From Spirochaetia bacterium (lineage in GTDB: Bacteria; Spirochaetota; Spirochaetia; SZUA-6; Bin103): DNA of 64,000 bases. The stretch lies in the NCBI GenBank assembly GCA_965203905.1, contig CBDBDQ010000005.1, positions 4,896,001 to 4,960,000 of the forward strand. Direction: 5' to 3'. The translations under genes and the position numbers were made by a program. This document shows positions 553 to 42,345 of the stretch, one piece after another (the stretch's first letter is position 1; every line of letters begins with the position of its first letter). The notes beneath the pieces are model-generated. The model was not told the origin of the DNA. It saw only the letters and a list, made by a program, of their open reading frames with translations, and did not search any database.

Positions 553-3500
553 ATGACCTACAACGACCTGATTCAGTTCGAGCCGATCGAGACGGTGGTG
601 CAGTTGCGCGACGCCGATCACGAGTCGGCTGCTCACCGGCTGGTGGCCACCTACGTGGTGAGCAACGAGATGGCCGAGAAGCTCGCCGCCGTTCTGATCC
701 CCCAGCTTCAGTTCGACGAGCCGGCCGACAACAAGGGGTTCCTGGTGGTCGGCAACTACGGAACCGGCAAGTCCCACCTGATGTCGGTCATCTCCGCGGT
801 AGCGGAGCGCGGCGAGTTGCTCGATGCGCTCACTAACGAGGACCTGGTTGCCGCGGCGCGCCGGATAGCCGGCCGGTTCAAGGTAGCCCGCACCGAGTTG
901 GGCGCTACCACGATGGATTTCCGTGAGTTCGTCTGCTCCCAGCTTGAGGAGGCACTCGCCACGTGGGGCATCGAGTACCGATTCCCGCCCCGAGACACCA
1001 TCCCGAACCACAAGCGGGCATTCGAGGAAATGATGGCCGCGTTCCACCGGCAGTACCCCGATCACGGGTTGCTGCTCGTGGTGGACGAGTTGCTCGACTA
1101 CCTCAAGAGCCGCAGAGACCAGGAGTTGGTCCTCGACCTGAACTTCCTGCGTGAGGTGGGCGAGGTGTGCAAGGACCTCAGGTTTCGCTTCGTGGCCGGA
1201 GTGCAGGAAGCGATCTTCGACAGCCTTAGATTCGCCCACGTGGCTGATAGTCTTCGGCGCGTCAAGGATCGCTTCGATCAGCTTCTCATCGCCCGAACGG
1301 ACGTGAAGTTCGTGGTCTCCCAACGGCTGCTCAAGAAGAGCGGCGAGCAGCAAGCGCAGATCCGCGATTATCTGTCTCCGTTCACGAAGTTCTACGGCAA
1401 CATGAACGAGCGGCTGGACGAGTTCGTGCGCCTGTTTCCGGTCCACCCCGATTTCATCGACACCTTCGAGCGAATCACGGTGATCGAGAAGCGAGAGGTC
1501 CTTAAAGCGCTCTCGGTGGCGATGAAGCGGGTCATAGACCGCGAGTTGCCGTCCGACAGCCCAGGTCTGATCGCGTACGATGCCTACTGGCGCACGTTGC
1601 GCGAGAATCCCGCATTTCGCGCCGACCCCGACATCAAGGCGGTGATCGATTGCAGCCAGGTGCTGGAGGCACGCATCAGGCAGGCGTTCACCCGCCCGGC
1701 CTACCAACCGGTCGCGTTGCGGATCATTCATGGGTTGTCGGTCCACCGCCTGACACACCAGGACATCTACGCGGCGCTGGGAGCTACTTCGGAGGAACTC
1801 CGGGACGGCCTGTGTCTGTACCAAGAGGGAATCGAGGACTTGGGGGGCGAGCCGGCGGACGACCTGCTCACGCAGGTCGAGACTGTCCTGCGTGAGATCC
1901 GGCGAACCGTGAACGGGCAGTTCATCACCGCGAACGCCGACAACGGCCAGCACTACCTCGACCTCAAGAAAACCGACGACTACGACGCCTTGATCGAGAA
2001 GCGCGCCGAGACACTCGACGAGTCGCAGCTAGATCGCTACTACTACGAGGCGCTCAGAAGCGTGCTGGTGGAACGCCCAGAGGCGATCTACGTTCCCGGC
2101 TACCAGATCTGGGAGCACGAGCTGGAGTGGCTTGAGCGTCACGCATCGCGGCGGGGCTACCTTTTCTTCGGGGCGCCCAACGAGCGATCCACGGCGGTCC
2201 CGCCGCGCGATTTCTACCTGTACTTCGTCCAACCGCACGATCCGCCGCACTACCAGGACCAGAAGAAGCCGGACGAGGTGTTCTTTCGATTCACCGGCCA
2301 GGACGACACCGTGCGGCACGCGCTCAGGAGCTACGCCGCGGCGCTTGATCTGGCATCACGCGCATCTGGGCACGCGAAGGAAGCGTACGATGGGAGAGCG
2401 CGAGGCTCGCGGCAGGACGTGACGAATTGGCTGCAGGACCGGATGACCACGGCGTTCGAGGTCACCTACCGAGGAAGGACCAAGCCCCTGATGAGATGGA
2501 TCAAGGGCAGGCGTACCGGAACGGGCGCGCGAGCCAACGTCAGAGAGATGGTGAACGCAGCCTCTTCGGTTGCCCTCGCCGCTCACTTCGAGAACGAAGC
2601 TCCGCAATATCCTACCTTCGCGGACTATCACACCCCCAAGAGCCGGCTGCAGGCGGTTCGGGACGCTCTGCGATGGATAGCCGGTTCCGCAAAGACGCAA
2701 CAGGCGGCAAAGGTCCTCGACGCCCTGGAACTGCTCGACGGTGACCGGCTCGATCCCAAGCTTTCAAAGTACGCGGGCCACATTGTCGATTCGTTGCGCA
2801 AGAAGGGGGTCGGGCAGGTCCTCAACCGGGAAGACCTCATCGACACCGTTCAGGATGTCGAGTACTTGGCGCCGGCCACGTTTCGGCTGGAGCCTGATTG
2901 GGTGGTCGTTCTGCTGGCGAGCCTCGTCTACTCCGGCGAACTGGTGCTCGCCGTCCCCGGCAAGAAGCTGGATGCCACTGACGTGGCAGTCCTCGCAGCC
3001 ACGCCGGTAGATGAACTCGCCAACTTCAAACACGTCGAGCGCCCCAAGGAGTGGAACATCCCGGCCCTGAGCGCCGTGTTCGAAACGGTGGGTCTGACCC
3101 CAGGCATGGCGCGACTCGTGACGCAGGGCAAAGACGCACCGGTTCAGGAACTGCAGAAGGCGGTGACCTCCTTCGTGACCAGGGCAGTCACGGCGCAGCA
3201 GGCGATACGGGAAGGGCTGCACTTTTGGGGCAGTAACCTGCTCGACGAGCAGGCCGACCTCAATCTGCGCAACAACCTGGATACATTCAAGGTGTTCCTT
3301 GAATCGCTGCAGGCGTACTCGTCGCCCGGGAGGCTCAAGAACTTCCGCTACGACCGGTACGAAGTGGAGGCGCAACAAGCCGGACTGAACGCCGTGCGAG
3401 AGGTTGAATCCCTCGTGGCGCTGGTCGCGGCGCTCGGAGGCACGGCGTCCTTCTTGTCGGCAGCGGAGGCCGTGCTGCCACCGGACCACGAGTGGACTGC

Positions 3501-4266
3501 ACGGATGAAACAAGCAAGGACGACCCTCCTCGGACAGATCGTCGATCCCGCGGCACGGTCTCAGCCCGCGTTCCGCCGCGAGGCGCAGCGGGCGCTCGGC
3601 GATCTGAAGCAGCAGTATGTCCGCGTATACCTCGACCTTCACACGCGAGGCCGACTCGGCGTCAACGACGACGCGCGCAAGCGCTGGCTCCTCAAGGACG
3701 AACGCCTGAAGAAGGTAAGCACACTGGCTACCATCGACCTGATGCCCCGCGGGCAGCTCGCGGGCTTTCAGGACCGTCTGGCCGGTGTGAGAAGCTGCTT
3801 CCGACTGACCGAGCAGGATCTCGTTGCGTCCCCTGAGTGTCCACATTGCGGATTCCGGCCGGCTACTGAGTCGACACCCGCGCGCGCTGGCGACGTGCTC
3901 TCGAACCTCGACGACGAACTCGACACGATCCTGTGCGGTTGGACTCAGACCCTGCTCACCAACCTGGACGACCCGATCGTCAGCGAGCAGGTGGCACTCT
4001 TGGATTCTGCCGAGGGCAGGCTTGTCAGTGCATTCATCGAATCCCGCACGCTCCCCGAAGACCTGGATCACAGCTTTGTCCACGGCGTTCGCACCCTGCT
4101 CTCCGGCTTGGCCAAGGTGGTCATAGCCACGGCGGATCTTCGCGAGGCGCTCCTTTTCGGGGGATCACCTGTGACTATCGACGAAATGACGACACGGTTC
4201 GGTGACTATCTAAGCGACCGATCGAAGGGTAACGACCGCGACAAGGTGCGGATCGTGCTGGAGTAG
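553..4266 (+). CDS. brxC: BREX-3 ATPase BrxC (DUF6079 family)
   Basis: 1237 aa, N-terminus '[16 protein letters not shown]', Walker A GNYGTGKS, Walker B LLVVDE, C-terminal CPHC and 'KVRIVLE' end. Confidence 0.92.
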
Positions 4267-4333
4267 TGCTAGATGACGCTTCTACACACGATCCTTGGCA
4301 CCATTATAATCAGAACAATAGCCCAAGGTAGGA

Positions 4334-5557
4334 GTGATGACACTTTACCCTCGACAACCAGCATCCGGAGATGGCCAGACCGAGACCAATCCGCGAGTCT
4401 TCGTGAGTTCCGTAATGGAGAACTTTGCTGAGTACCGAGAGGCAGCCGCGATAGGGATTCGCCGCGCTGGATGCGAGCCGGTCCGGGCAGAGGACTTCCC
4501 CGCGCAATCCACTTCACCACGGACGGCCTGCTTGGACGGGGTTCGTAGTGCAGACGCACTGGTGCTCATCCTTGGCGAGCGTTATGGATTCGTCGGACCT
4601 TCCGGCCTCGCCGCAACCGAAGAAGAATACCGGGAAGCTCTGAAAACTGACAAGCCCGTATTGGTATTTATACAGGCTGGTGTCATACACGAGCCCCGAC
4701 AGGCGTCTCTGATCGCCAACATTCAAGGTTACGTCGACGGCCACTGGCGCAAGGCATTTCGGGGATCCTCGGAGTTGGCGGAGCTCGTGGAAGACGCAGT
4801 GAAAGCCGCAGACTTGGACGCCGTACCGCTTCGCGGAAGCCAAGCAGCAGCGAGGAGGGTGCGTTCCGAGCTGACGGATGGTTTCACGAACGGTACGGAC
4901 GCAGTAGTCCTGCGGACAGTCTGGGCAACGCTGCGCAACGAGGAGGTCATTGATCCTCTTGAGCTCGACGACGGCGAGTTCAAGCGAGTACTGCTACGTA
5001 TAGGGCATGAGTGCGTCCCACCGGTATTCGACTACGCCTGCGGCAAGAGATCATTCGTCGAGACTTCACGTATCAGGATAAATCAAGGTGATATCCAGAA
5101 TTGGGGCGGTACTGAGCACTTCGCCGCTGTGGAGATCAGCGTCCAAGGAACGATGGTGGTCACGCAAGGCGTCACGGGAGCCGAGGATCGACGCGACACG
5201 CTCGACCATCATCTAAGTGCTCATGTGATTGATCCGAACGTCTTGCAGGCGCAGATGAAACAAGCGTGGGCCTTCGCCGCGGGTTGGTGGAAAGAACGTG
5301 ACCCCTATCTGAGACACGATAGGCTACTGTACAATGTTGGTCTCTACAACATAGGACACCGTGTATTCGGCCCGCCTCCTCGCGCGGGAGAACCCATCAC
5401 GGTGCCGTTTGTGCCCTTGGACGGTCCGTTGATCGTGTTCGACTCGCCCCGAACCGTATCTCGTGCCTCTCTCGATGTCTCCGACGATGAGGTTGCACGA
5501 GCTATCAGTCTTATCGGACGCCGGTTTCGCCAACTCCACGATAGATGGCAGCGATGA
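4334..5557 (+). CDS. DUF4062 domain protein with uncharacterised C-terminal domain
   Basis: 'RVFVSSVM...R..A...CLDGVRSADALVLILGERYG...TEEEYREA...KPVLVF' typical of DUF4062. Confidence 0.85.
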   Translation: MMTLYPRQPASGDGQTETNPRVFVSSVMENFAEYREAAAIGIRRAGCEPVRAEDFPAQSTSPRTACLDGVRSADALVLILGERYGFVGPSGLAATEEEYREALKTDKPVLVFIQAGVIHEPRQASLIANIQGYVDGHWRKAFRGSSELAELVEDAVKAADLDAVPLRGSQAAARRVRSELTDGFTNGTDAVVLRTVWATLRNEEVIDPLELDDGEFKRVLLRIGHECVPPVFDYACGKRSFVETSRIRINQGDIQNWGGTEHFAAVEISVQGTMVVTQGVTGAEDRRDTLDHHLSAHVIDPNVLQAQMKQAWAFAAGWWKERDPYLRHDRLLYNVGLYNIGHRVFGPPPRAGEPITVPFVPLDGPLIVFDSPRTVSRASLDVSDDEVARAISLIGRRFRQLHDRWQR

Positions 5558-7395
5558 CGCGGAGTGCGCTGATCGATCGCCTGAGCAAGTACGAGTGGTC
5601 GGATGTCGAATTCAAGGAGGCACGCAACGCAGCGCCCAAGAGTGCGTACGAGACGGTTTCCGCGTTTGCCAACACTGCTGGTGGTTGGCTGGTGTTCGGT
5701 GTCCGCGACCGCGGCGGGTCGCTCGGAATCGTTGGCGTCATTCAGGTTGACAAGGTACAGAACGAGTTCCTGAGCACCCTCCGGTCCGGGCAGAAGATCA
5801 ACCGCGCCATCGACGTTGCCGAGGACATGGTCGAGACCGACGGCAAGACGCTCCTCGTCTTCCACATCCCGGAGTCGCCTCGGAGCGAGAAGCCAGTCTA
5901 CCTCGACGGCGACATCCGGCGCTCATTCATTCGGCGCGGCGCCGGCGACGAGCGTTGTACTCCTGCGGAGATCGAGCGGTTTCTCCGAGATGCTTCCGCG
6001 GACCGCTACGATGGCGAGACGCTGTCCGGACTGGACGCCGAGGAGTTCTTCGACGCGGAGTCCGTGCGCTGGTACCGGCGCGTGTTCGACGAACGCAACC
6101 CCGGCAGGCATCAGGGGCTCTCGGATGTGGAGTTCCTGAACGAATGGGGCTTCGTCGTGGAACAGGGCGATCGCCTGGCGCCCACGCGCGCGGCGACCCT
6201 CGTCTTTGGTCGCGCGCGCCACGTACGCCGGATACTGCCGCGACCGGTCGTCGATTGCCAGTTCATCGACTCTCCGTTCCACTCGTGGTCGACCGACCGG
6301 CGATGGTACGACCGAATCGTAGTCGAGGAGAATCTCGTTCAGGCGTGGCTGATGCTGTCCGAGCGCTACGCGAAACATGCCGAACACCCGTTCAGCGTAG
6401 ACGCGGCAACGCTCCGGCGGGATGACGATCCGCCGGACTACGTCTCATTCCGCGAAGCGGCCATCAATCTGCTTATCCACCAGGACTACGGCGATCACGG
6501 CCGCAAGGCGTCTATCAGGTTCTTCCGCGATCGGACCGTGTTCTGGAATCCGGGCGACTCCTTCGCCGCCACCGATGAGCTTCTGGACCCCACCGAGAAG
6601 GAGGTGCGCAACCCGGCGATCGTTGGCGCGTTCCGCCGGATCGGGCTGAGCGAGCAGGCGGGGACCGGCGTACGCGCGATCTTCCAGGGCTGGCAGCGGC
6701 TGGGCCACGTTCCTCCGGTGATCGAGGACGACAAGGCGAAGAAGACATTCGAGCTTCTGCTGTTACGCGAGGTGCTGGTCAGCAGAGAGCAGCGGCTGCT
6801 GCAGGCGCAACTCGGCGTGAACCTCAGCGAGCCGCAGGCACGGCTCTTCGCCGTCGCCTGCCGTCGGCGCGGCGCCTCGCTCGCGGACGCGAAGGCGGTG
6901 ACGGGCCATTCGGGGCCGGAGGCTCGGAAGGTGCTGGACGCGCTTGCCGTACAAGGACTCCTGGAGGCGTCGGGAGATACAGGCCGGTACGGCCTTGCCG
7001 AGCACATCAAGGGTAGCCTCGATACTGCACAGCTTGATCAGTCGACGAGTGACCAAGTCCGGGAAGGCGCCGCCGGCTTGGTCAGTGACCAACCCGGCAG
7101 ACCTGACGCCCACTTGGTCACTCCCGCGCTGCCCAATCTGACCGACGATCAGCGCGCGATCATCACGCTGTGCGAAGTACCGCGCAAGCAAGCCGAGCTC
7201 ATGCGGGAGACCGGGCTCTCGCACCGTACGTTCTTTCGGCGTAAGCGCTTGGACCCATTGCTTCGGGCCGGGCTGATCCGCATGACCCGCCCGGACGAGC
7301 CGAACCACCCCGACCAAGCGTACGTGGTGACCGAGGCAGGTCTCGCATTCCTGCACGAATGGCGAGCCGAAGTTGGCCGCGAGGGAGACCCATGA
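5554..7395 (+). CDS. AlbA_2/Schlafen domain + HATPase_c_4 (RecG_C-like) + C-terminal HTH protein
   Basis: 'EWSDVEFKEA...ETVSAFANTAGGWLVFGV' (AlbA_2); 'REAAINLLIHQDY...NPG...RNPAI...EQAGTGV'; C-terminal 'LDPLLRAGLIRMTRPDEPNHPDQAY'; ATG 5554 overlaps the upstream TGA. Confidence 0.85.
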   Translation: MTRSALIDRLSKYEWSDVEFKEARNAAPKSAYETVSAFANTAGGWLVFGVRDRGGSLGIVGVIQVDKVQNEFLSTLRSGQKINRAIDVAEDMVETDGKTLLVFHIPESPRSEKPVYLDGDIRRSFIRRGAGDERCTPAEIERFLRDASADRYDGETLSGLDAEEFFDAESVRWYRRVFDERNPGRHQGLSDVEFLNEWGFVVEQGDRLAPTRAATLVFGRARHVRRILPRPVVDCQFIDSPFHSWSTDRRWYDRIVVEENLVQAWLMLSERYAKHAEHPFSVDAATLRRDDDPPDYVSFREAAINLLIHQDYGDHGRKASIRFFRDRTVFWNPGDSFAATDELLDPTEKEVRNPAIVGAFRRIGLSEQAGTGVRAIFQGWQRLGHVPPVIEDDKAKKTFELLLLREVLVSREQRLLQAQLGVNLSEPQARLFAVACRRRGASLADAKAVTGHSGPEARKVLDALAVQGLLEASGDTGRYGLAEHIKGSLDTAQLDQSTSDQVREGAAGLVSDQPGRPDAHLVTPALPNLTDDQRAIITLCEVPRKQAELMRETGLSHRTFFRRKRLDPLLRAGLIRMTRPDEPNHPDQAYVVTEAGLAFLHEWRAEVGREGDP

Positions 7396-7416
7396 GCCGC
7401 GGTTTCCACGTGCCGA

Positions 7417-7483
7417 GGTTGGTCACTGAGCAATCCCTCTGCCATGCGGCAACTTGGTCACTGTCTTCCGCTGACTTGGTCAC
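7417..7483. repeat. TTGGTCAC motif triplet (spacing 35/22) upstream of pglXI
   Basis: TTGGTCAC at 7419, 7454 and 7476; same motif and spacing at 21672/21707/21729. Confidence 0.75.
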
Positions 7484-7509
7484 GGTACGACTTGCCGGAG
7501 GCGATGTGG

Positions 7510-10353
7510 ATGGCTGAGCGAGACGACCGCTCGCAGGAGAAGCTCTTCCGTACCGAAACAGTCCCCGGCAAGGCCGGCAGCGGGAGACTGTTCGACGAAC
7601 GTCCGGTCACGCCGGAGCCGGTGGAGTGCCTCGGCATGAGGTTCGAGTCGGAAGATGCACGGCGCACGTACTTCCTTGACCGCCTGAAGGAGCAACTCCC
7701 CGATCTGCGGAAGCGCTCCGACTTCCCGGTCGGAGAGGACCACGACATCTTGCGCCTGTCCGACCCACCCTGGTACACGGCCTGCCCCAACCCGTTCCTG
7801 GCCGAGTTCGTGGGATACCGTGGCCGTCCGTACGACCCGGACCAGCCGTACCACCGCGAACCGTTCGCCGTGGACGTGAGCGAGGGCAAGACCGACCCGC
7901 TGTACCGGGCGCACGGCTACCACACCAAGGTGCCCCACCGGGCGATCGTGCCCTCCATCCTGCACTACACCAAGCCGGGCGACATCGTCCTGGACGGCTT
8001 CTGCGGCGCCGGTATGACCGGGGTGGCGGCGCAGTGGTGCGAGACTCCGCCGAGCCAGTACCGCGCCGAGATCAAGGCGCGATGGCAGGAGCAGGGCCGT
8101 CCGGCGCCCGAGTGGGGGCCACGCCACACGATCCTGGGCGATCTGTCCCCCGCCGCCACCTTCATCGCCGCCAACTACACGATCCCGTTCGACGTCGATG
8201 TTTTCACGTGCGCGGCCCGGCGCCTGCTCGACGACGTGGAAGCGGAGATCGGCTGGATGTACGAGACGTTCCACGCCGCAGGCGAGACCGGGAAGATCAA
8301 CTACACCGTGTGGAGCGAAGTGTTCTCCTGTCCGGAGTGCGCGGGCGAGGTTGTATTCCTCCGGGAGGCGCTCGACCAGGAGACCATGCGCACACGCGAT
8401 CAGTTCCCGTGCCCGCACTGCTCGGCGGTATTGTCGAAGGACAATCTGCAGCGATCCTTTCGTTCCCGTTCCGACCCGGCTTCAGGCGAACCGTGGCAAC
8501 GCATCCGGTTGCAACCGGTGCTGATCGACGCTCACGCGGCGGAAGTGGGTCGATACGGAACCACCCCGGATCGCGGTGACTTGGCGAAACTCGAGCGAAT
8601 CGATAATCTCCCGCTGGTGCCCGAGGTTCCGGCGAACGCGTTCCCTATTGACGCGATGTATCACGGTTCGCGGCTTGCGCCGAAGGGATTTACCCACCTG
8701 CACCACCTGTTCCTGCCCCGCGCCGCGCACGCGCTGGCCGCGCTGTGGCGTCGGGCGCACCGATACGACGAGCCCCGGCTGCGCAACATGCTGCTGTTCT
8801 TCGTCGAGCAGGCGATCTGGGGAATGTCGCTGCTCAACCGGTACCAACCGCTCCAGCACGGTCGGCCTGGAGGGTCACAGGTGAATCGCCAGCTATCGGG
8901 TGTCTACTACGTCGGGTCGCAGATCGCCGAGGTCTCACCGCGGTACATCCTCAACGGCAAGTTGCAGCGCTTGAGCAAGGCGTTCAAGAAAACGCACCGG
9001 CGCCGCACCGTTGTGGTCTCCACCGGTAATTGCGGTGCCCTCGACCTGCCGGACAACGCCGTCGACTACGTGTTCACCGATCCGCCCTTCGGCGAGAACA
9101 TCTACTACGCCGACCTCAACTACCTGGTCGAATCGTGGCACCGCGTCCGCACCGCCAGCGGGCCGGAGGCGATCATCGACCGCGCCAAGGGCAAGGACCT
9201 CACCGACTATCTGCACGCGATGCAGCGCTGCTTCGCGGAATACCGCCGGGTTCTCAAGCCGGGCCGCTGGATGACTGTGGTGTTCCATAACTCCCGCAAC
9301 GCCGTCTGGAACGCCATCCAGGAGGCGATGCTCGCCGCCGGCTTTGTGGTCGCGGACGTGCGAACCCTCGACAAGCGGCAGGGCTCCTATCGTCAGGTGA
9401 CCAGCACCGCAGTCAAGCAGGACTTGGTCATCTCCGCCTACAAGCCAAACTTCGGGCTCGAAGCACGGTTCGAGCTGGCAGCCGGTACCGAGGATGGCGT
9501 CTGGGACTTCGTCCGCACCCACCTGCGGCATCTCCCGGTGTTCGTGGCGCGGGACGACCGTGCGGAGGTGATCGCCGAGCGCCAGAACTCCCTGCTGTTC
9601 GATCGCATGGTCGCCTTTCACGTCCAGCGCGGCGTTCTGGTGCCGCTCGCCGCCGCCGAGTTCCACGCCGGACTGGCAACGCGCTTCCCCGAGCGCGACG
9701 GTATGTTCTTCCTGCCGGAGCAGGTCGCCGAGTACGACCGCAGGCGGCTCAAGGCGAAGGCGCTCGACCAACTGACCCTGTTCGTCGACGACGAGGCGAG
9801 CGCGATCCAATGGCTGCGGCAGGCACTCACCAGAAAGCCGCAGACCTTCCAGGACGTGCACCCTCACTTCATCCGGGAGTTGCGCGCCTGGCAGAAGCAC
9901 GAGCGAATGCCCGAGCTGTCGGCGCTGCTGGCGCAGAACTTCCTACGTTACGACGGCAAGGGTGACGTCCCGGGCCAGATCCACGGCTACCTGTCGACCA
10001 ATTTCAAGGAGTTACGCAACCTTGAAAAGGACGACGCCGCCCTCCGCGCCAAGGCCAGGGACCGCTGGTACGTGCCCGACCCACGCAAGGCCGGCCAACG
10101 GGAGAAGCTGCGTGAACGCGCCCTGCTGCGGGAATTCGACGACTACCGCGACTCCGCCAAGCGGCGCCTGCGCATGTTCCGCCTGGAAGCGGTGCGCGCG
10201 GGCTTCCGCCGTGCCTGGCAGCGTCAGGACTACGCCACCATCATCGCCGTCGCGCAGAAAATCCCGGACGCGGTGCTCCAGGAAGACCCGAAACTGCTCA
10301 TGTGGTACGACCAAGCCCTCACCCGCAGCCCCGAATCACGGACGACGCCGTGA
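7510..10353 (+). CDS. pglXI: BREX-3 amino-DNA methyltransferase PglXI
   Basis: Motif I 'VLDGFCGAGMTG', motif IV 'FTDPPF', CPEC/CPHC zinc ribbon, C-terminal 'LQEDPKLLMWYD'; GGAGG at 7497-7501 supports ATG 7510. Confidence 0.88.
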   Translation: MAERDDRSQEKLFRTETVPGKAGSGRLFDERPVTPEPVECLGMRFESEDARRTYFLDRLKEQLPDLRKRSDFPVGEDHDILRLSDPPWYTACPNPFLAEFVGYRGRPYDPDQPYHREPFAVDVSEGKTDPLYRAHGYHTKVPHRAIVPSILHYTKPGDIVLDGFCGAGMTGVAAQWCETPPSQYRAEIKARWQEQGRPAPEWGPRHTILGDLSPAATFIAANYTIPFDVDVFTCAARRLLDDVEAEIGWMYETFHAAGETGKINYTVWSEVFSCPECAGEVVFLREALDQETMRTRDQFPCPHCSAVLSKDNLQRSFRSRSDPASGEPWQRIRLQPVLIDAHAAEVGRYGTTPDRGDLAKLERIDNLPLVPEVPANAFPIDAMYHGSRLAPKGFTHLHHLFLPRAAHALAALWRRAHRYDEPRLRNMLLFFVEQAIWGMSLLNRYQPLQHGRPGGSQVNRQLSGVYYVGSQIAEVSPRYILNGKLQRLSKAFKKTHRRRTVVVSTGNCGALDLPDNAVDYVFTDPPFGENIYYADLNYLVESWHRVRTASGPEAIIDRAKGKDLTDYLHAMQRCFAEYRRVLKPGRWMTVVFHNSRNAVWNAIQEAMLAAGFVVADVRTLDKRQGSYRQVTSTAVKQDLVISAYKPNFGLEARFELAAGTEDGVWDFVRTHLRHLPVFVARDDRAEVIAERQNSLLFDRMVAFHVQRGVLVPLAAAEFHAGLATRFPERDGMFFLPEQVAEYDRRRLKAKALDQLTLFVDDEASAIQWLRQALTRKPQTFQDVHPHFIRELRAWQKHERMPELSALLAQNFLRYDGKGDVPGQIHGYLSTNFKELRNLEKDDAALRAKARDRWYVPDPRKAGQREKLRERALLREFDDYRDSAKRRLRMFRLEAVRAGFRRAWQRQDYATIIAVAQKIPDAVLQEDPKLLMWYDQALTRSPESRTTP

Positions 10354-19807: not shown

Positions 19808-20824
19808 ATGTCTGAGGTTCCACAAGCTCCGAGCGATTATTCAAAGGGACAACTGCCTGTGGAGAGTCCCGATCAAACGTCGTTATTTGAGGATGTACAG
19901 CATCCAGTATCCGTCGCCAACGAGTCGCCTGCTGCCGTCTGGGAGCGAGAAGCAGTTAAGCATGCTTTGGATGAGCTGTTCAGCCTCACTCATCAGTACA
20001 AAGGGAGCCGTGAATACAATAATCTGCTTGAATTTGTCGGACGTTTTCGATCCTACTCACCGTTCAACGCTATGCTGGTTCACGTTCAGATGCCTGGTGC
20101 AAAGTTTGTGGCTCCGCCAAGGCGGTGGCTTGACATATACAAGAGAACGATAAAGCCGGGAGCACGACCGATTATCATTCTGCAACCGATGGGGCCGGTA
20201 ATGTTCGTTTTCGATGTCGGTCAAACAGAGCCGATTGATGGAGATCAGGGTTTGCCGCCTCAGATAGAGAACCCGTTTAGAACGACTGGAAGACAAATTC
20301 GTAAGGGACTCCCACGTGCGATCGAAAACGGAAAACGTGATGGTGTCCGCGTAACGCGCATACTTCAAGGATCTCAAGCGGCTGGTTACATCGTTCGCGT
20401 CGACAAGAGAGTCAGGATATCGCAACCGTTTCAATCAGGATTAGACTCGAACAGAAACCCGATCTTGACGAATATCCCAGTCAAGTACGATCTTGTGGTC
20501 AATGCTGCGTTGAGTGATGAAGAACAGTATGCTACCATCGCTCATGAACTTGCTCACTTGTACTGCGGCCACATTGGCTCTCCGAATCCGAGTTGGTGGC
20601 CTAACCGAATAGGATTGGACACTGTCTTAGCTGAGTTTGAAGCTGAGTCGGTTGCTCACATGGTATGTCAGCGGTTCGGGATACAAAGCCATTCGGAGAA
20701 GTATCTCGTCGGATATCTTGAAACACACCGTCAGATTCCACGCATAAGTCTGGAACTCGTGATGAAGGCGGCGGGACTCATCGAGTCCATGACGAAAGGC
20801 CGGTTGAAGCTACGAAAAGCGTGA
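19808..20824 (+). CDS. ArdC-like N-terminal domain + HExxH zinc metallopeptidase (ImmA/IrrE/MPTase-like)
   Basis: 'FRSYSPFNAMLVHVQMPGAKFVA...W' (ArdC-N-like), 'HELAHLYCGH', 'EFEAESVAHMVC'; visibly lower GC than flanks. Confidence 0.75.
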   Translation: MSEVPQAPSDYSKGQLPVESPDQTSLFEDVQHPVSVANESPAAVWEREAVKHALDELFSLTHQYKGSREYNNLLEFVGRFRSYSPFNAMLVHVQMPGAKFVAPPRRWLDIYKRTIKPGARPIIILQPMGPVMFVFDVGQTEPIDGDQGLPPQIENPFRTTGRQIRKGLPRAIENGKRDGVRVTRILQGSQAAGYIVRVDKRVRISQPFQSGLDSNRNPILTNIPVKYDLVVNAALSDEEQYATIAHELAHLYCGHIGSPNPSWWPNRIGLDTVLAEFEAESVAHMVCQRFGIQSHSEKYLVGYLETHRQIPRISLELVMKAAGLIESMTKGRLKLRKA

Positions 20825-21564
20825 AGACACAAGACAGACTCGTGGGATTCGATCGTAAGGTCCGGCTGAGCTGGTTGGATGCGACCGCGGAGTGGGTCGC
20901 CCAGGGGCTCTCTGTTGCTGATATCCGACTTAGACTCGACCGTCTTCTTGACGGTGAGGTCACGGGAGGAGGCTCTCACACCGCTCGTGGCAAGACGATT
21001 ACGGTGTTGCTACATATTTGGGTGGTTGTACCTGGCGAGATTGTGTCTTTGCGTAACGACGGGCTTGATGTACTTGACGGGCTCGAAGGTCGTCAGCGAG
21101 TGATCGCGCACTGGGGTATGTGTCTGGCGACCTATCCGTTCTTCCGCGACGTGGCTGCGACGACGGGCCGCCTTCTCTCGCTTCAGGGACGGGCGTCGCT
21201 GTCGCAGATCGTCCGACGCGTGTCGGAAGCCTGGGGCGCACGGAGTACAGTGCCGCGGGCGGTACAGCGAGTGATCCGGTCGTTCGTGTCCTGGGGTGTC
21301 CTGGCCGAGACGCCGGTACGGGGGATATACGAACCGGCGCCAAAGATCGCAGTAACACAAAGCAAGATCGGGGCTTGGTTGCTGGAAGCGCGATTGGCAG
21401 ACGAGGGCCTTGGAGGCTGTCCCATCCACACGGTAGCCCGCGACGCGTCGTATTTCCCGTTGGACCTGAGATTGACGGTGCCCGACATAAACCGGAATCC
21501 ACGGCTGGAAGTCGTCCATCAAGGGTTTGACGCCCCGGTCGTTACGTTGAAGCGGACCAGATAG
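20821..21564 (+). CDS. brxA: BREX-3 BrxA-like protein
   Basis: 'VGFDRKVRLSWLD...KTITVLLHIW...HWGMCLATYPFF...WGARSTVPRAVQRVIRSFVSWGVL'; terminal position in the type 3 locus. Confidence 0.82.
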   Translation: MKTQDRLVGFDRKVRLSWLDATAEWVAQGLSVADIRLRLDRLLDGEVTGGGSHTARGKTITVLLHIWVVVPGEIVSLRNDGLDVLDGLEGRQRVIAHWGMCLATYPFFRDVAATTGRLLSLQGRASLSQIVRRVSEAWGARSTVPRAVQRVIRSFVSWGVLAETPVRGIYEPAPKIAVTQSKIGAWLLEARLADEGLGGCPIHTVARDASYFPLDLRLTVPDINRNPRLEVVHQGFDAPVVTLKRTR

Positions 21565-22020
21565 CCCGCTACGTGCAGACCGTCCGCCAGGATGAGCGGG
21601 CTCCGTGTCGAGATGTCGTGCACACCAATCGTCGGAAGGAGCGACACGCATCGCAAGCGACCATTACGAGGTTGGTCACTGACCAACCTGTTTGCTCACG
21701 AGGAGCTTGGTCACTCCTTGTTCCGGGGTTGGTCACTGCCCCGGCGCCGGCGAGGTGCGGATTGCAGGTCTGGCTGTGACCCGAAGGCGGCGGCCAGCGT
21801 CTTGCGCTGGTCGGTGTTGAGCAGTTCGCGCGGGCTGAGTTCCAGCACCACGGTCTTGGCCCCGGATGGATCGCCGTCGCCTCGCGGAGCAGATCTTCGT
21901 CGAGGTAGATGGATCTCCATGAGGAGATGGTGGCCCGGAAGTGTGGAGTCGCTCAATGCGCCCCTTTGGGTTGGCCTCGGTTGGTACCGGCGCAGCCCCC
22001 GACCCGAGCGGTCGTTCCTT
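21547..22020 (+). repeat. Diverged ~480 bp direct repeat, copy 1
   Basis: Aligns by eye with 24087-24575 from TTGAAGCGGAC onward. Confidence 0.9.
21711..21920 (-). pseudogene. Frameshifted VapB-type (RHH) antitoxin remnant
   Basis: Across frameshifts reads 'SIYLDEDLLREATAIHPG..KTVVLELSPRELLNTDQRKTLAAAFGSQPDLQSAPRRR', resembling DUF2191/VapB. Confidence 0.55.
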
Positions 22021-22037
22021 GACTACGTTTCCGTCTA

Positions 22038-22628
22038 ATGATAGTATTTTCTCTCGATATGGTGGATAATCAAACGCATATTAGCCTATTGGGTACCGGC
22101 GAATTGTCTTTGTCGGTTAAAGAATTTCAAGATGAAATAGGATACGACGGACTCACAGTAAAGCGTAGACATCGAGATGAGTGGCCAGTACATGCCGGAT
22201 TAGAAGCATATCTTCCAACTCTGGTATTGCTTGTCATAGGCAGTGCATATTTCAGGAGCTTTCTACAACAGGCGGGCAAGGACCACGCGGTCATTTTGAC
22301 CCGTGCACTTGAGAGACTCTCAAAGAAGCTCTTTCATAGAGAAAAGGACGCAGCTATCGTTGGCCGGGACAAAACGAATAAACCAGACTACTCATTCCTT
22401 TTTTCTGTTTGGGCCAGTGTCAACAAATGCACAGTAAAGTTCATATTTAAGACGCGATGTTCGGACGAAGAATATGCGGCGACCGGAATAGCCGCGATAG
22501 AGTTCTTGAATGAGTACCATACTGGCGGAAATTTGGCAAAATACCGGGCGATCATTGACGCGACTGAAGATCACACACAAATCGTGGTTGCATACGATTA
22601 TGATTCCGACTCACTATATCTCTTGTGA
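22038..22628 (+). CDS. Hypothetical protein, low GC, one hydrophobic segment
   Basis: 196 aa ORF in an AT-rich stretch; no recognised family. Confidence 0.55.
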   Translation: MIVFSLDMVDNQTHISLLGTGELSLSVKEFQDEIGYDGLTVKRRHRDEWPVHAGLEAYLPTLVLLVIGSAYFRSFLQQAGKDHAVILTRALERLSKKLFHREKDAAIVGRDKTNKPDYSFLFSVWASVNKCTVKFIFKTRCSDEEYAATGIAAIEFLNEYHTGGNLAKYRAIIDATEDHTQIVVAYDYDSDSLYLL

Positions 22629-23099
22629 CCTTTCATCCCACCCTATCAACCCTATTGCCCCAATGCCAACATATACGACGTTAATCAGAGGGAGGCGGCC
22701 CCACGGTAAACCCGTAGCGTTGCTTATAATTGCGCTACCGTGGTGACGCTCGATGGCGCGCGGAGTCAACCCTGCGACCGGTTCTTCATTGGCTGCACCC
22801 GCTCAACGATTGTCGATAGTGCCTGGAACCTGAGGTCCGTCCTAATAGCTCTATGGGACCGCAGGGGTTCGACTGGAAAAAGAGGTCGAAAAAATGACGG
22901 AAGCTCTGAAAGACGCAATCGGTCACTAGGAAGGATGCCCAATGAATGGATGCCGAATCTGCGAAGCACGTCCATCTGCGCTTGACACAGTAAGCGGGTG
23001 GCGAATCCAGGTATTGATGGCGGTGACGGCGGCGGACGGGCAACAGGGAGGAGCGCGAGACACTCGGCGCGGGTGCGGGCATGGCTGAGAACGCGTCGC

Positions 23100-42271: not shown

Positions 42272-42345
42272 GGGCAATTAGCTCAGCTGGATAGAGCGCT
42301 GGCCTCCGGAGCCAGAGGTCGTGGGTTCGAATCCCCCATTGCCCG
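42272..42345 (+). tRNA. tRNA-Arg(CCG)
   Basis: Acceptor GGGCAAT/ATTGCCC, D-arm GCTC/GAGC, anticodon arm CTGGC-CTCCGGA-GCCAG, TTCGAAT; one T-stem mismatch, CCA not encoded. Confidence 0.9.

Follow-up and report, generated by a model that had tools for sequence, protein, structure and literature searches.

The type 3 BREX (BREX-3) operon of a Spirochaetia bacterium (GCA_965203905.1) carries, between its core genes pglXI and brxHII, a reverse transcriptase (RT) gene followed at once by a gene for a nitrilase protein. The operon lies in a stretch of 64,000 nt on contig CBDBDQ010000005.1 (positions 4,896,001-4,960,000, forward strand), referred to here as the window, whose own numbering is used for all coordinates. 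The pair is probably an autonomous abortive-infection module of the class 3 UG/Abi type, co-transcribed as cargo from a variable hotspot slot beside the methyltransferase gene and serving as an independent second layer of immunity. The described gene set of type 3 BREX (brxF-brxC-pglXI-brxHII-pglZ-brxA) contains neither an RT nor a nitrilase.

The RT-nitrilase pair and its family

The two genes and the core genes that flank them are as follows (lengths in amino acids, aa):

7444-10353, + strand: PglXI methyltransferase, BREX-3 core gene (PADLOC PglXI, 1333 bits)
10350-13007, + strand: reverse transcriptase, 885 aa (Pfam RVT_1, weak; PADLOC RT_UG6, 83 bits; AlphaFold2/Foldseek)
13004-14746, + strand: RT-associated nitrilase protein, 580 aa (PADLOC RTasNitrilase, 119 bits)
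14765-17662, + strand: BrxHII SNF2 helicase, BREX-3 core gene (PADLOC, 1430 bits; residues 37-960 on profile positions 4-930)

The original prediction had placed an RT of ~885 aa and a nitrilase of ~580 aa between pglXI and brxHII, with overlapping codons that left no intergenic room, and the open reading frames (ORFs) agree with it. The TGA of pglXI (10351-10353) overlaps the GTG of the RT gene at 10350 in the tetranucleotide GTGA (10350-10353), and the RT TGA overlaps the nitrilase ATG at 13004 in an ATGA (13004-13007). The gap between the nitrilase gene and brxHII measures 18-117 nt depending on the BrxHII start codon, as the frame is open from 14765 and holds in-frame ATGs at 14840, 14855 and 14864, with the likely start within 14840-14864. 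No sigma-70-like or promoter-like site was detected on the + strand from 4310 to 22019, in a scan that is weak evidence at 64% G+C. The overlapping start and stop codons, together with the lack of a nearby promoter-like site, suggest that the RT and nitrilase genes are probably read from the operon transcript.

Contigs from two metatranscriptome libraries, ~94% identical to the window and derived from relatives, bridge two of the junctions: one spans the RT/nitrilase junction (12656-13076) and another the nitrilase/BrxHII junction (14666-14959). With DNA carry-over possible in these libraries, the contigs give a weak hint at co-transcription of RT, nitrilase and BrxHII. The four read runs that were compared consist of contigs from relatives' metagenomes, and the parts they do not cover carry no meaning. 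Long skips joining PglXI to BrxHII or PglZ were left unused, as their flanks comprised only 34-38 letters at 88% likeness. A deeper contig of ~1 kb, present in two metatranscriptome libraries, matches the 3' part of the RT gene from 12227 and carries unrelated, AT-richer sequence before that point; in some relative, the junction within the RT gene seems to differ. Runs labelled 'sponge metagenome' contain 20-31% of the sampled words of 7000-18000, and in one of them pieces mostly 90-99% identical occur all along 7000-18000, which points to close relatives in such samples.

The RT domain covers approximately residues 20-400 and is followed by a helical C-terminal half. Motif A with its Asp (D221) and motif B (GIPTGLAVSG) are invariant, and motif C reads FADE, its last two residues being D355 and E356. 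Residues 271-555 align with positions 131-364 of the 925 positions of the RT_UG6 profile. The AlphaFold2 model (pLDDT 87, pTM 0.91, built on 69 sequences) confirmed the RT fold at the level of a prediction, and Foldseek aligns the first ~450 residues of the model with group II intron RTs, the RT of a diversity-generating retroelement, DRT9, DRT4 and AbiP2; the helical C-terminal half gave no specific Foldseek match. A group II intron RT was rejected on a TIGR04416 score of 55.7 bits against a cutoff of 300 and the lack of an intron RNA match. In motif C, most relatives have FADD. FADE recurs in L001, one of the related loci introduced below (L-numbers are locus labels), and, among the 119 listed homologues spanning the motif, in 12 that are all full length and 66-93% identical to the RT of the window. 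This recurrence in full-length proteins points to purifying selection, and by sequence comparison the Glu looks like a maintained variant, not a fresh lesion.

The C-N hydrolase domain occupies residues 312-574 of the nitrilase protein and contains E323, E374, K398 and C445, which are invariant in 38 of 38 aligned relatives. The same residues 312-574 match the PADLOC profiles RTasNitrilase, UG5-nitrilase and Drt1a, and the profile of the nitrilase family matches the solved DRT1 structure 9yfd (E 3.7e-13). The predicted model (pLDDT 90.7) places an amidase/nitrilase fold in the C-terminal half, and the N-terminal ~300 aa match no Pfam family.

A word-indexed search yielded 248 relatives of the RT. 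Among the best 120 of these, 70 are of split length (<1000 aa) and 50 of fused length (≥1200 aa, ~1470). An exhaustive search of 1.84 billion cluster representatives returned 132 at E ≤ 1e-30 and 433 at E ≤ 1e-3; the RT-nitrilase family is rare. In total, 49 loci were fetched, 35 from species genomes and 14 from metagenomes, and in 43 of them the RT has a nitrilase match fused to it or immediately downstream. The six loci without such a match comprise five in which the contig ends and one RT fragment (L026). By sequence, the pair in the window represents the split version of a family whose members are elsewhere fused into a single ~1470-aa protein, and these fused homologues imply that the two halves belong together.

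Seven diverse members of the family scored 37-94 bits against RT_UG6, always over part of the profile, so that the family is nearest to UG6 and yet no member of UG6 by profile. The original prediction had likened the pair to the RT-nitrilase combinations of UG RTs such as DRT1, and an assignment to the UG/Abi class 3 kind is sustained by the matches to RT_UG6, RTasNitrilase and Drt1a and by the invariant Glu-Lys-Cys residues; its proviso that the pair might already be catalogued as an ordinary UG group did not hold by hidden Markov model score. The family is accordingly best filed, on present profiles, as an unclassified lineage nearest to the class 3 systems DRT1, UG5/DRT11 and UG6.

Class 3 UG/Abi RTs (DRT1/UG1, UG5-large/DRT11, UG5-small and UG6) likewise combine an RT with a C-N hydrolase bearing a Glu-Lys-Cys triad, fused or encoded by the next gene, and they share with the window pair a long linker region between RT and nitrilase, loci in defence islands and no evident non-coding RNA (ncRNA). 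The pair differs from UG1 and UG5 in that its RT matches none of their RT profiles, RT_UG6 being matched only over the palm. UG6 has a DnaG-type primase partner (cluster 192 in the available text of PMC9226505), whereas the window pair has none; no primase domain was found by Pfam or PADLOC in the 11 operon genes. Unlike UG5-large and DRT1b, the pair lacks a transmembrane partner, and FADE in motif C sets the window's lineage apart from the YxDD-type motif of class 3. The word 'BREX' does not occur in the text of PMC9226505 or PMC13436386, and nesting in BREX, Hma or DISARM goes unmentioned there.

Retrons also combine an RT with an adjacent effector gene, and an abortive-infection logic is expected for both. 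However, retrons need an msr/msd RNA, and there is no upstream room for one here as the RT start overlaps the PglXI stop. Ten PADLOC families are listed for the RT, with RT_UG6 ranked first and no retron RT model among them. An upstream ncRNA was sought and rejected: no Rfam family reached its gathering score in 1-24000, and the whole window yields only a tRNA at 42272-42345. The ~400-nt upstream regions of 9 standalone fused loci contain no conserved block, with a mean column identity of 37% and no invariant column. Carriage by plasmids or phages was likewise rejected, as tblastn with the RT gave no match at E ≤ 1e-10 in 72,556 plasmid and 50,697 phage records.

Relatives in BREX, Hma and DISARM operons

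Thirteen of the 49 related loci are nested between core genes of a methylation-based system (BREX-3, 4; BREX-1, 4; Hma/BREX-related, 3; DISARM, 2), and the fraction rises to 12 of 26 among loci with at least 7 kb on both sides. The remaining loci stand alone or on short contigs. Nesting was counted by BLAST with exemplar proteins annotated by PADLOC, and the remaining loci were only spot-checked for other systems. The neighbours met there are of the defence-island kind: PDC-S06, a type I methylase, a Ppl-like and an MzaC-like gene, and a DrmMI-like methylase accompanied by a DruE-like helicase. The nested loci are arranged as follows:

L001, L003, L006 (BREX-3): RT-nitrilase after PglXI
L028 (decayed BREX-3): DUF4062 gene, RT fragment, broken nitrilase gene, M78-like gene, PglZ fragment and BrxA remain
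L004, L005, L007, L019 (BREX-1): BrxA-BrxC-(HTH-M78)-RT-nitrilase-(HEC-01A/B)-PglX-PglZ-BrxL
L013, L015, L018 (Hma/DUF499, BREX-related): pair flanked by HmaC and HmaB, with an AAA-PD-(D/E)XK gene and a Shosha pair next to it
L025 (DISARM): DrmD-DrmMI-AriAB-like-RT-nitrilase-SoFic-DrmA-DrmB
L016 (split DISARM): pair flanked by DrmA-like and DrmMI-like genes on the other strand

The association with BREX anticipated by the original prediction thus recurs: relatives lie after PglXI in three more BREX-3 loci and in a decayed one, and four BREX-1 loci have them between BrxC and PglX. PglXI is followed directly by the RT in the window, L003 and L006, while L001 has a gene for a Dcm-like C5-cytosine methylase between PglXI and the RT. 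L001 has a truncated PglXI of 645 aa (query residues 18-639), and in this relative of the same genus the BREX methylase may be out of action (6820-9854). In the BREX hosts the RT is preceded by a gap of ~90 nt or less, and the nitrilase ORF of L005 overlaps the start of PglX. Time and again, members of the family are found in such slots of methylation-based systems, beside cargo such as PARIS-like ATPases, and this recurring nesting suggests a recurring second layer of immunity.

An RT tree of 39 rows was built by quick search; 11 of the 49 loci (L026, L028, L031-L035 and L046-L049) were dropped because their best RT segment covers fewer than 500 query residues or contains stops. All BREX-nested rows fall into one group of 11 rows (SH-aLRT 91), which also holds the non-BREX loci L002, L036 and L038. 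A separate group with 100% support unites L016 with the Hma-nested rows, and L025 is far from both groups. The tree needs at least three changes of the nested label and at least five of host type. A single origin of BREX nesting was rejected, as an exclusive clade of the 8 BREX rows failed the approximately unbiased (AU) test (p 0.0025), the group having been named after the tree was seen. The original prediction had counted close homologues mainly outside BREX as evidence against itself: across the family 41 of the 49 loci do lie outside, whereas in the nearest subclade 8 of 11 rows, the window included, lie inside. In L021 (10001-15791) the fused RT-nitrilase gene is interrupted by an opposite-strand DDE transposase (DUF772/DDE_Tnp_1), a second copy of which lies 1 kb upstream.

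The genome of the window and that of L001, a metagenome-assembled genome labelled 'Spirochaetia bacterium', share a genus. Among 41 related genomes, the RT was found in 2, the window's own included, and PglXI in 16 (E ≤ 1e-30). Three relatives, L072, L073 and L074, carry BrxF-BrxC-(DUF4062)-Schlafen-PglXI-...-BrxHII-PglZ-BrxA without the RT-nitrilase pair, at tblastn identities to the window of 83-90% for PglXI, 93-95% for the Schlafen gene and 83-84% for BrxC. The place between PglXI and BrxHII is filled differently in each:

L072: 380-aa protein, no family match
L073: DUF4238 gene, opposite strand
L074: ISAzo13-type DDE transposase

The RT-less BREX-3 operons keep the gene order, and the pair occurs outside BREX as well; the place between PglXI and BrxHII is a hotspot. 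In L075 (2902-12175) and L076 (7436-13364), this place contains two or three tandem PglXI paralogues, 46-75% identical, perhaps a reserve of alternative methyltransferase or target-recognition genes.

Embedded backup effectors are a recurring pattern in BREX according to the available text of PMC12839542. Such effectors, including Schlafen, HEPN and OLD/TOPRIM nucleases and PARIS, likewise sit between core genes in variable slots, are co-oriented and also occur standalone, but they are nucleases, whereas the effector in the window is an RT with a nitrilase. The main text of PMC12839542, in its available part, names no reverse transcriptase, nitrilase, retron or DRT, and its supplements may list such neighbours. 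Full-text literature searches, with the supplements of PMC12839542 and PMC9226505 outside their scope, returned no published description of an RT or a nitrilase inside BREX; hits that were checked dealt with unrelated nitrilases or lists of systems.

An M78-like protein may be a third member of the module that travels with the pair. Its gene lies in the PglZ-BrxA gap in the window, directly 3' of the nitrilase gene in L003 (14431-15396) and L028 (12194-12862), and is absent from the RT-less relatives L072-L074. The neighbours of the window protein in the protein atlas are ImmA/IrrE and ArdC-N clusters. A gene combining a helix-turn-helix with M78 (HTH-M78) lies directly 5' of the RT in L004 and L005, and also 5' in L007 with a reverse-strand ORF between. 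The M78-like protein of the window and the HTH-M78 proteins of the BREX-1 hosts show no pairwise similarity and were rejected as one partner family.

Further genes of the BREX-3 operon

Eleven co-oriented genes, named by PADLOC and Pfam, form one block on the + strand (1-21564). In addition to the four genes given above, the block contains the following:

1-537, + strand: BrxF, BREX-3 core gene (PADLOC BrxF, 194 bits; a 180-aa ORF in the organism's own genome)
553-4266, + strand: BrxC ATPase, BREX-3 core gene (PADLOC BrxC, 1867 bits, full length; Pfam DUF6079)
4334-5557, + strand: DUF4062 protein, non-core cargo (Pfam DUF4062, 3e-20)
5545-7395, + strand: Schlafen AlbA_2, HATPase_c_4 and winged helix-turn-helix protein, non-core (Pfam matches)
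17659-19674, + strand: PglZ, BREX-3 core gene (PADLOC PglZ, 899 bits)
19808-20824, + strand: ImmA/IrrE (M78) peptidase-like protein, non-core (Pfam Peptidase_M78, 3.8e-5)
20821-21564, + strand: BrxA, BREX-3 core gene (PADLOC BrxA, 210 bits)

All six genes of the type 3 set gave full-length PADLOC matches in canonical order within one co-oriented cluster. As the BrxF start lies in the organism's own genome just outside the window, 6 nt upstream of its edge, the six core genes are intact, which the original prediction had also maintained. Five extra genes are interleaved with them; beyond the RT and nitrilase genes, the DUF4062, Schlafen-type and M78-like genes had been overlooked in the first reading, as had the FADE in motif C of the RT. 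The DUF4062 gene is present in the relative L074 and absent from L072 and L073, and the Schlafen-type architecture is a known BREX-embedded auxiliary effector (PMC12839542, available text).

A strong promoter-like site (TATAAT, 10/12 matches) lies at 4281-4310, just 5' of the DUF4062 gene, and the G+C content drops to 0.58-0.59 over 4001-6000. After BrxA, two small ORFs of 148 and 196 aa (21592-23000) have no match in Pfam, PADLOC or NCBIfam, in a G+C-poor region (0.49 at 22001-23000 versus ~0.65 around).

Candidate mechanism and competing explanations

The mechanism proposed for the pair is drawn from its better characterised class 3 counterparts. DRT1, DRT5S and DRT5L synthesise DNA template-free with protein priming, and in DRT1 the DNA adducts build up dormant filaments in which the nitrilase is kept closed. 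Activation of DRT1 depends on the T4 Dda helicase and leads to abortive infection; both active sites are required (PMC13275509, available text). For UG5-large, the available part of PMC13436386 states that no ncRNA was found. By analogy with DRT1 and DRT5, the RT of the window would most likely make short template-free DNA in a protein-primed manner, and this DNA would keep an oligomer of the nitrilase dormant until a phage replication factor freed it and abortive infection followed. The RT and nitrilase genes probably constitute one two-protein defence module, whose products would act in trans as in UG5-small. Produced along with BREX, the module would provide a second layer that works independently. 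Template-free, protein-primed synthesis would also explain why neither an upstream ncRNA nor intergenic room is needed.

Several observations weigh against the reading of the pair as an autonomous cargo module. For this family, that reading, held to be probable, is built on sequence comparison, models and analogy. The RT domain and that of DRT1 are very distant, the RT profile retrieving none of the DRT1 chains in the PDB at E ≤ 0.01, so the mechanistic analogy leans mainly on the nitrilase and the architecture. FADE replaces the second catalytic Asp of motif C, and polymerase activity is a prediction. The position after PglXI is kept in BREX-3 hosts labelled Spirochaetia, Acidobacteriota and Gemmatimonadota, which fits a working partnership with BREX better, and L003 and L006 are otherwise complete BREX-3 operons without BrxHII. 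The genomes of these two loci have no BrxHII orthologue, the best matches being generic SNF2 proteins 36-37% identical over the SNF2 core. In addition, the nesting survey leaves out the 20-odd closest protein homologues (60-93% identity).

The alternative favoured by part of this evidence is functional integration, in which the operon is a BREX-3 variant whose RT and nitrilase work with BREX proteins, for example by replacing or complementing BrxHII or as an effector under PglXI or BrxC. The RT placed directly after PglXI in three loci and behind a methylase gene in L001, the overlapping codons of PglXI, RT and nitrilase, the ORF overlap with PglX in L005 and the pair without BrxHII in L003 and L006 all agree with it. 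However, the same family occurs at other positions in BREX-1, Hma and DISARM, standalone or in other islands, near-identical BREX-3 operons keep their gene order without the pair, and the exclusive BREX-nested RT clade was rejected. Only 77% of type 3 loci (702 taxa) contain BrxHII, and for the 23% that lack it no RT is reported in the available text of PMC12839542. With only four intact BREX-3 cases, too few to show enrichment, the missing BrxHII may reflect coincidence or decay. Integration is thus rather unlikely, and the 'BREX-RT hybrid' or new subtype put forward by the original prediction is not borne out. A broader version, in which the lineage is a dedicated companion of methylation-based immunity, recruited beside methyltransferase genes to read the state of the machinery and taking the place of BrxHII as effector arm in L003 and L006, is unlikely too, if a little less so; such a companion might sense a methyltransferase/ATPase complex inhibited by a phage, or unmodified replicating DNA.

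A guard of methylation-based immunity would be an autonomous module triggered by a phage counter-measure, such as a DNA mimic or an S-adenosylmethionine-degrading enzyme, directed against BREX, restriction-modification or DISARM. PARIS nests in BREX and fires on Ocr, and would be a precedent. The four host system types are all methyltransferase-based, the module usually adjoins a methyltransferase gene, and its slots are shared with PARIS-like or OLD-type ATPases, namely HEC-01A/B (L004, L007), AriAB-like (L025) and Ppl-like (L007, L019) proteins. Yet many members lie beside no recognised methyltransferase system, shared hotspots and co-transfer alone can explain the nesting, and the trigger of DRT1, the only class 3 RT-nitrilase with a known one, is a helicase and no anti-restriction protein (PMC13275509, available text), all of which leaves a guard doubtful. 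Far more improbable is an inactive passenger, a decaying and functionless remnant whose polymerase was disabled by FADE. In the window, Glu takes the place of the second Asp in motif C, decay is seen elsewhere in the family (the fragmented L028, the RT fragment L026 and the transposase-split L021), and double Asp-to-Asn mutants of DRT1 lose defence (PMC13275509, available text). But both ORFs are full length and keep all other conserved residues, Glu retains the carboxylate, the models are confident (pLDDT 87 for the RT and 91 for the nitrilase), and the 12 full-length FADE homologues point to purifying selection.

The mechanism of class 3 RT-nitrilase systems is a very recent subject (DRT1, 2026). 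If the pair is, as is probable, an autonomous module carried as cargo, it adds a polymerase-hydrolase pair to a list of BREX-embedded backup effectors made up of nucleases. A lineage met again and again in BREX, BREX-related and DISARM operons is a natural test case for the idea that such modules protect epigenetic immunity from phage counter-defence, and the FADE variant and the split and fused forms provide ready comparisons for biochemistry.

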